Source: Escherichia coli O127:H6 str. E2348/69 (lineage in GTDB: Bacteria > Pseudomonadota > Gammaproteobacteria > Enterobacterales > Enterobacteriaceae). Taken from it: a stretch of DNA of 64,000 bases. How positions within the stretch are numbered: the first letter of the stretch is position 1; each line of letters starts with the position of its first letter. The position numbers and the translations under genes were made by a program. Below the pieces are notes generated by a model that did no database searches, was not told the DNA's origin, and saw only the letters and a list, made by a program, of their open reading frames with translations. The stretch is taken from NCBI RefSeq assembly GCF_000026545.1, contig NC_011601.1. One strand, written 5' to 3'. Below are positions 7,677 through 8,462 of this stretch, one piece after another.

Positions 7677-8462
7677 TGCTCTCCCTGATTGCTTTAATGA
7701 AAAAGTCATATAAGTTGCCATGAACAATGTTTATTCATCCTAGCGATGACAAGATTCACCATTATTCTTTATGGGTATAACTGTCGGCGCAGAATCCTAC
7801 CTTTTATCATGTAACGATGCAAAATAATCCCGCTATAAATATGTGGGGATAAAGGCGGCTGGCGACAAAATAGCAACCTGATGAAATTATGACGGAAACA
7901 ACCACTATTGGTTTGATGATACCTGACTGCAGTCCTACTCTTGCGCCACTCGTTCGTCGCTCTGAACGCCAGTGGTTGCAGTGGATACTGGCGTGGTTGG
8001 CTCAATGAATAGTGAGGGGCTAGCACATGATGGGTTTCAGAGGTAATACGCCAAATACCAATATAATTGATGATTAAATGAGCCAATTGCCGACGTTACA
8101 TAAAAGGCTAAAAAATGTAAGAGGCATGTAGGGTGATAAACGCGCTATTGCCCAACAGGAGTTTCTGAAATTAGTCCTGTTCCATGGGCATTACAACTCT
8201 TAGGACATTACTTCAATATAATTAATGTGTATATCATTCTCGATATTAATTTATGAAGTGAATTTAATATATTCCGAATTCTTAATTTACATTACTAATG
8301 TATGGGGCATAACGTTAAGAAATCATAACGGGAAACGTTGATAACTTGCTTTGATTTCATTTTCTATGAAGATGATGCCATCAATGCTGCATAAAGTGGG
8401 TATATTGAACATCAAAGAGCGTTTGTTTTTATCTGAAAGATATTATTTCCAGGAGAAAGGAT

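Follow-up and report, generated by a model that had tools for sequence, protein, structure and literature searches.

The interval between ansP and the next gene of Escherichia coli O127:H6 str. E2348/69 contains what is almost certainly the relic of a pseudogene that decayed long ago, namely yncG, a GST-family member standing divergent from ansP in most E. coli. The relic occupies positions 7872-8125 of the 64-kb stretch of DNA analysed here (64,000 nucleotides, referred to below as the window), and the 39-codon ORF embedded in it represents in-frame remains of the gene. The first-pass annotation had proposed two identities for this ORF, a small-protein gene or a remnant of a displaced gene, and it is the second that proved right. 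The flanks of the locus are arranged as in K-12: pqqU-yncE-ansP lie to the left of it and pptA-yddH-nhoA to the right. The 786 bp from 7677 to 8462 are 100% identical to E2348/69 (RefSeq NZ_CP059840.2), and nothing between ansP and the next gene, the ORF included, is annotated there. Farther out, upstream of pqqU, the regulator gene mcbR is reduced in E2348/69 and ST131 to short GntR-family pseudogene fragments (window ~2359-2582, plus strand) with mnaT beyond them; curA-mcbR is intact in K-12 and RM9387. The features of the interval are collected in Table 1.

Table 1. Features of the ansP-proximal interval of E2348/69, in window coordinates
Feature	Position	Strand	Basis
ansP (L-asparagine permease), conserved left anchor	6177..7676	-	RefSeq annotation; 97.5% identical to K-12 ansP
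ansP upstream region (promoter and leader), common to yncG-bearing genomes	7677..7871		83% identical to the 197 bp directly preceding ansP in K-12
yncG relic fragment A, codons ~58-101	7872..8000	+	tblastn with YncG aa 61-100; DNA identity 66-68%
39-codon ORF, probably an accidental open frame in the relic	7889..8008	+	yncG Met64 codon to a stop just past the deletion junction
yncG relic fragment B, codons ~169-205, with in-frame stop	8016..8125	+	tblastn with YncG aa 175-200 at 8036-8113
AT-rich spacer, in place of yncH and its flanks	8126..8220		No match to K-12 region 885-1488 (L003 6885-7488)
AT-rich block, homologue of the K-12 yncH-rhsE segment	8221..8320		RM9387 545-689 versus K-12 region 1489-1634: 72.6%, E 2e-24
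Deletion junction, so far only in E2348/69	8320..8321		~139-150 bp of RM9387 and E1V33 missing
Upstream region and SD (aggag, 8451-8455) of the 176-aa effector gene	8321..8462	+	anti-SD -7.4 kcal/mol; sequence read

Two eroded pieces of yncG beside ansP

When K-12 YncG and YncH were searched by tblastn against the 64-kb window, a single 40-residue YncG fragment was recovered (7880-7999), in line with the first-pass statement that neither gene is present intact, and YncH found no match anywhere in the window. A six-residue match, FLIYIT (8279-8296), was considered as a possible yncH remnant and rejected (E 0.15); the K-12 yncH DNA has no counterpart here. The ORF is present where the first-pass annotation had placed it, on the plus strand, with the 39-aa translation exactly as quoted and with an ordinary GC content, measured at 0.517. 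Its length is within chance, since 438 ORFs as long or longer occur in the window (~6.8 per kb with all six frames counted), and its similarity to YncG is beyond chance: in the tblastn comparison with the whole window, the translation of 7880-7999 (DEIMTETTTIGLMIPDCSPTLAPLVRRSERQWLQWILAWL) is 60% identical to residues 61-100 of K-12 YncG (DEIMTETAAIALMVLDRRPDLAPPVGRAERQLFQRLLVWL), in an ungapped alignment with an E value of 4e-9. This homology begins three codons ahead of the ATG of the ORF, indicating that this ATG corresponds to Met64 inside yncG rather than to a start codon; the ORF is composed of yncG codons 64-100 in frame, followed by a few junction codons. Fragment B, which is 42% identical to YncG residues 175-200 and contains an internal stop, lies in the same reading frame as fragment A (tblastn). 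At the DNA level its block shows 68.5% identity (E 1e-8), and the pairwise map against K-12 places the equivalent of the yncG stop codon near 8115-8130.

With sensitive scoring, the K-12 ansP-yncG-yncH-rhsE interval and the relic haplotype share four colinear blocks, namely the ansP upstream region (E 1e-54), yncG codons ~58-101 (E 2e-14), yncG codons ~169-197 (E 1e-8) and an AT-rich segment located between yncH and rhsE in K-12 (E 2e-24). The relic has the same position and orientation as K-12 yncG (b1454, GST-family, 205 aa), divergent from ansP and upstream of an rhsE-type element. About 65 of the 205 codons of the K-12 gene survive in it, with the in-frame stop in fragment B. Absent from the relic haplotype are 248 bp of K-12 DNA ahead of fragment A, comprising the yncG promoter, the ribosome-binding site and codons 1-59, most of codons 101-168, and yncH with its flanks.

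The first-pass reading of a displaced gene thus holds as far as the remnant is concerned, and gives way on simple displacement by insertion, in place of which we propose erosion by at least three internal deletions. One deletion, of 248 bp, would have taken the promoter, the ribosome-binding site and the first 59 codons; further deletions would have taken the missing middle of the gene, and yncH and its flanks would have been lost as well. Two colinear pieces (codons ~58-101 and ~169-205) would then have been left, and the ORF would be the portion of the first that stays open by chance, from Met64 to a stop beyond the deletion junction. The homology and colinearity of the blocks were observed directly; the order of the deletions is one that we infer. 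In its erosion by multiple deletions and neutral substitutions, the relic resembles other bacterial gene remnants beside variable Rhs/T6SS loci, such as the pseudogenes rhsE and yncI at the same locus in K-12.

The relic is not a functional member of the YncG family, its promoter, ribosome-binding site, N-terminal thioredoxin-like part and most of the C-terminal domain having been deleted. Profile scans of the 39-aa peptide returned no Pfam or NCBIfam match. The N-terminal thioredoxin-like GST domain, which includes the glutathione-binding and catalytic region and is recognized by PF13417 and PF13409 in full-length YncG homologues, is not found in the peptide, codons 1-59 being deleted, and the relic retains neither the C-terminal alpha-helical GST domain nor an unbroken frame of ~205 aa. 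With the thioredoxin-like part and most of the C-terminal domain gone, the ORF cannot encode a GST.

Parentage, spread and age of the relic

In a set of 5,426 complete E. coli genomes, the relic was found in 786 and yncG DNA in 4,622, so that the relic stands in place of the intact gene in about one in seven E. coli genomes. The first 155 bp upstream of ansP are matched in 5,404 of these genomes, a number close to the sum of the two classes, and the relic and yncG therefore look like alternatives, a mutual exclusivity that we infer from these genome totals. The relic carriers include E2348/69, ST131, SE15, RM9387 and JNE120442. As the AnsP proteins of RM9387 and JNE120442 are identical to that of K-12, the relic haplotype evidently moves by recombination.

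Across 100,044 species representatives, an exact relic 22-mer was found in one other species, Escherichia sp. E1V33, in a scan that would miss relics differing within the 22-mer. E1V33 has the same synteny, with the effector-immunity-vgrG module intact. Presence of the relic in a separate, cryptic Escherichia species indicates that it is old. Indeed, compared with other bacterial pseudogene relics it is unusually old, its divergence from yncG being well past within-species levels, and the modest evolutionary point to be made here is that the distance between the relic and yncG greatly exceeds the divergence of the flanking genes within the species.

The DNA identity of 68% to K-12 yncG is far below what normal within-species divergence would leave, and the relic may descend from a divergent or imported allele of yncG and not from one of the K-12 type. 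No intact YncG closer than ~60% was found among 120 homologues from Escherichia, Citrobacter, Salmonella, Enterobacter, Leclercia and Kosakonia, and when the 44-aa conceptual peptide served as query in a word-indexed protein search, only the same E. coli peptides came back, again without a closer intact parent. Either the parent allele was divergent, or it has been decaying for a long time.

The fragments could also come from a different GST gene carried in with the AT-rich islet and not from the resident yncG, an origin that we consider unlikely. Import would fit the identities of 60% (amino acid) and 68% (DNA) to E. coli yncG, set against 83-100% for Escherichia YncG proteins, the slightly closer match of fragment B to YncG of the Leclercia/Enterobacter type (50-57%) than to that of E. 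coli (38-46%), and the unusual divergence of the ansP-proximal intergenic DNA as well (83%). However, the position, orientation and colinearity are exactly those of yncG, fragment A is best matched by E. coli YncG, with which it shares an Asp61-Glu62 pair absent in other genera, and the GC content of the ORF fits the core genome and not the islet. Moreover, all matches are YncG orthologues, so the source would be at most a divergent yncG allele, which is still yncG.

The intergenic DNA next to ansP (7677-7871, GC 0.385) is just 83% identical to that of K-12, against 97.5% for ansP itself, and in RM9387 and C10 it is a mosaic, K-12-like at 'gatgatagttatcacc' and relic-like farther along. Together, the mosaicism and the low intergenic identity point to recombination breakpoints within the ansP promoter region, as judged from these alignments. 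The full 786 bp from 7677 to 8462 are matched at 99% or more by only 3 records.

A separate case of yncG inactivation is provided by ATCC 25922, a strain sharing >99% identity with E2348/69 in both ansP and yncE. It carries a K-12-type yncG (3111-3729 in the coordinates of the ATCC 25922 locus, L009), independently inactivated by a frameshift and an internal stop, which suggests that yncG is dispensable. After yncG, the same locus holds a different T6SS module with PAAR, vgrG and DUF4123 genes (4270-6727), and the locus seems to be a hotspot for alternative vgrG islands.

Translation signals and constraint in the ORF

The 20 nucleotides preceding the ORF (AAUAGCAACCUGAUGAAAUU) give an anti-SD duplex energy of +0.4 kcal/mol, that is, no SD. 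The corresponding energies of real genes are between -5.3 and -8.2 kcal/mol in seven of the eight tested, with pqqU at -1.5, and the median over the 1,089 plus-strand ATGs of the window is -2.3; the ORF falls in the weakest quarter of all ATGs in the window. A scan for promoters and terminators detected nothing promoter-like on the plus strand ahead of the ORF. The first-pass annotation had tied its doubts about the ORF to a lack of both homologues and ribosome-binding site; the ribosome-binding site is indeed absent, whereas a clear homologue, YncG, exists.

Seven haplotypes were compared (E2348/69, ST131, RM9387, JNE120442, C10, CUWW06 and Escherichia sp. E1V33). The start of the ORF is ATG in E2348/69 and ST131 and TTG in RM9387, JNE120442 and C10; neither an initiation signal nor a conserved start was found. 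In CUWW06 and E1V33, a 1-bp deletion shifts the frame after codon 15, and 12 extra yncG-like bases are present. Pairwise pN/pS is ~1, resting on 1-5 substitutions per pair, and neither purifying selection on the ORF nor conservation of its frame was detected across the lineages. The 90% peptide cluster contains 34 variants, with scattered single changes among the 15 listed. Orthologues of YncG sampled from Escherichia to Kosakonia keep 75-92% identity to the K-12 protein across the 40 residues aligned, whereas the relic is 48-60% identical to every orthologue sampled, and its changes hit positions that are invariant in all of them. Against E1V33, the relic shows 81% identity with 14 gap positions, compared with 91.7% for ansP and 94.0% for yncE; the ORF itself is 86.6% identical, with an indel, and the DNA upstream of it 94.4%. 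The missing SD, the varying start and frame, the pN/pS near 1 and the altered invariant residues together constitute the signature of an unconstrained pseudogene. Counting against the relic reading, the frame is open in most relic genomes, judged from haplotypes representing identity bands of ~770 of the 786, and PGAP calls a protein in some of them.

This openness is also an argument for a genuine small-protein gene, whether exapted from the remains of yncG or independent of them: the ORF is intact, with ATG or TTG, in haplotypes covering most of the 786 relic genomes, PGAP calls a hypothetical protein (WP_001386241.1, WP_001317812.1), and, by reading of the sequence, the 39-aa peptide has a C-terminal half that is rich in Trp and hydrophobic, a feature of some small membrane proteins. 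We nevertheless regard such a gene, the other option of the first-pass annotation, as very improbable and set it aside, given the lack of an SD and of an upstream promoter-like site on the plus strand, the unconserved start codon, the shifted frame in CUWW06 and E1V33, the single amino-acid variants scattered along the peptide at a pN/pS of ~1, and the missing annotation in the E2348/69 RefSeq record. Conservation of the ORF is, in addition, no higher than that of the flanking non-coding DNA, and lower in the comparison with E1V33. Validated E. coli small proteins of <50 aa are similar in length, and the ORF is like them hydrophobic in its C-terminal half; unlike them, it has no SD, no conserved start and no sign of purifying selection, and it derives from inside a larger gene. 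A specific form of exaptation, in which the relic of B2-type lineages would yield the 39-aa Trp-rich peptide as a small membrane protein by SD-independent translation, for instance of a transcript originating in the divergent promoter region of ansP, seems to us hardly credible; if true, it would be a case of gene birth from a pseudogene fragment. Leaderless or SD-independent translation of the ORF may occur. Under the preferred reading, a decayed yncG, the relic is probably neither expressed nor functional, and with no translation signals and neutral evolution the ORF most likely does nothing.

A longer frame on the opposite strand, a 105-codon ORF with a TTG start (7769..8086, minus strand), was judged spurious. 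It has no Pfam match, a weak SD (-1.7) and many inter-strain amino-acid changes, and in the sampled haplotypes its frame is disrupted, in CUWW06 and E1V33 by frameshifts and a stop, in C10 by a near-end stop.

Public databases already contain the identity of the fragment implicitly: the RefSeq annotation of strain Z22-2 records the stretch as a pseudogene of 'glutathione S-transferase' that lacks both ends, and 39-aa and 43-aa peptides in NCBI nr and UniRef bear the name 'glutathione S-transferase'. In ST131 MB1159 and JNE120442 it is a PGAP 'hypothetical protein' (WP_001386241.1, WP_001317812.1). Other pseudogene relics called as short hypothetical proteins are likewise annotated inconsistently; this one lies beside a hypervariable vgrG/rhs locus. 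A literature search on yncG together with ansP found nothing relevant. A non-functional yncG remnant is in itself neither unusual nor new, and what the result resolves is a matter of annotation with little wider importance: WP_001386241.1 and its relatives are yncG pseudogene fragments and should not be counted as small-protein genes.

AT-rich DNA and the linked T6SS module

GC content falls sharply after ~8100, as the first-pass annotation had described, from 0.47 (7900-8099) and 0.41 (8000-8199) to 0.305 (8100-8299) and 0.285 (8200-8399). The drop is real, and only its interpretation as an islet boundary has to be revised: rather than the edge of a foreign insertion, it coincides with the 3' end of the relic near 8115-8130. 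The AT-rich DNA at 8126-8320 is present in every sampled relic haplotype without an IS1 there, including ST131, in which an ISEc1 element follows it and the islet genes are absent; its first part, the spacer, is common to ST131, RM9387, JNE120442, C10 and E1V33, and in its second part, window positions 8244-8298 align to K-12 (L003 7511-7566). By these comparisons, the GC drop does not appear to be the edge of strain-specific or foreign DNA. At the deletion junction that ends the AT-rich block, the piece missing from E2348/69 is flanked by short direct repeats, GTTAAGA.

The effector-immunity pair that follows occurs in 230 of the 5,426 E. coli genomes and adjoins the relic in all seven cases examined, indicating that the relic and the T6SS module form one haplotype. 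In the four of these cases that were measured, the ansP-effector spacer is 937 bp long. The module has been lost from most relic carriers. The relic would be part of an old haplotype, alternative to the yncG-yncH haplotype and linked to an orphan T6SS module consisting of a VgrG2b-like metallopeptidase effector, a lipoprotein immunity gene, vgrG and rhs; in ST131-type lineages, the module would have been lost later, next to the ISEc1 element, with the relic kept. Taken together, the age of the relic and its tight linkage to the T6SS module suggest that the ansP-pptA interval exists as two deep alternative haplotypes circulating by recombination.

Retention of the relic as regulatory sequence, for example as a control element ahead of ansP or of the T6SS effector genes, would suit its location between two divergently oriented transcription units, its persistence across species-level divergence in E1V33 and its adjacency to the effector module wherever the module exists (7/7 sampled), but we give this possibility very little weight, because the relic evolves fastest in the interval (81% versus 91-94% for the flanks in the E1V33 comparison), is unchanged in ST131 although the effector module is gone, and begins only beyond the 155 bp next to ansP that are common to all E. 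coli. Promoter-like sites in the region are no commoner than in shuffles, an Rfam scan of 7500-9600 at E values up to 1 gave no match. A repeat search found short AT-rich repeats at chance level only.

Several observations concern the module itself. The 176-aa protein with an HEMMH motif (8463-8993, plus strand) has no Pfam or NCBIfam match and is homologous, as a stand-alone protein, to the metallopeptidase effector domain at the C-terminus of P. aeruginosa VgrG2b (PDB 6h56_A, E 2.9e-18, residues 4-138); its RefSeq name is either 'hypothetical protein' or the misleading 'type IV secretion protein Rhs'. It is followed by a putative T6SS immunity lipoprotein gene (8990-9345, plus strand; NF045617, E 5e-7, under the curated cut-off). 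In RM9387, CUWW06, JNE120442 and E1V33, the ATG of the immunity gene overlaps the effector stop, and the product begins with a lipoprotein signal peptide, MKRFFLF..FLSGC. E2348/69 differs in a T-rich tract, so that the immunity ATG (8990) is out of frame with the body, and what remains is a TTG-initiated 112-aa ORF (9007) with a truncated signal peptide. The module is also degenerate downstream (9567-11600, plus strand), vgrG being truncated to its Phage_GPD domain and running into an rhs fragment, both of them RefSeq pseudogenes; in RM9387, E1V33 and MP1, vgrG is full, and a dcrB-like gene and rhs are kept as well. The rhs remnant is bordered on its right by a SymE-family type I toxin gene (12236-12436, minus strand), followed by another unnamed pseudogene fragment.
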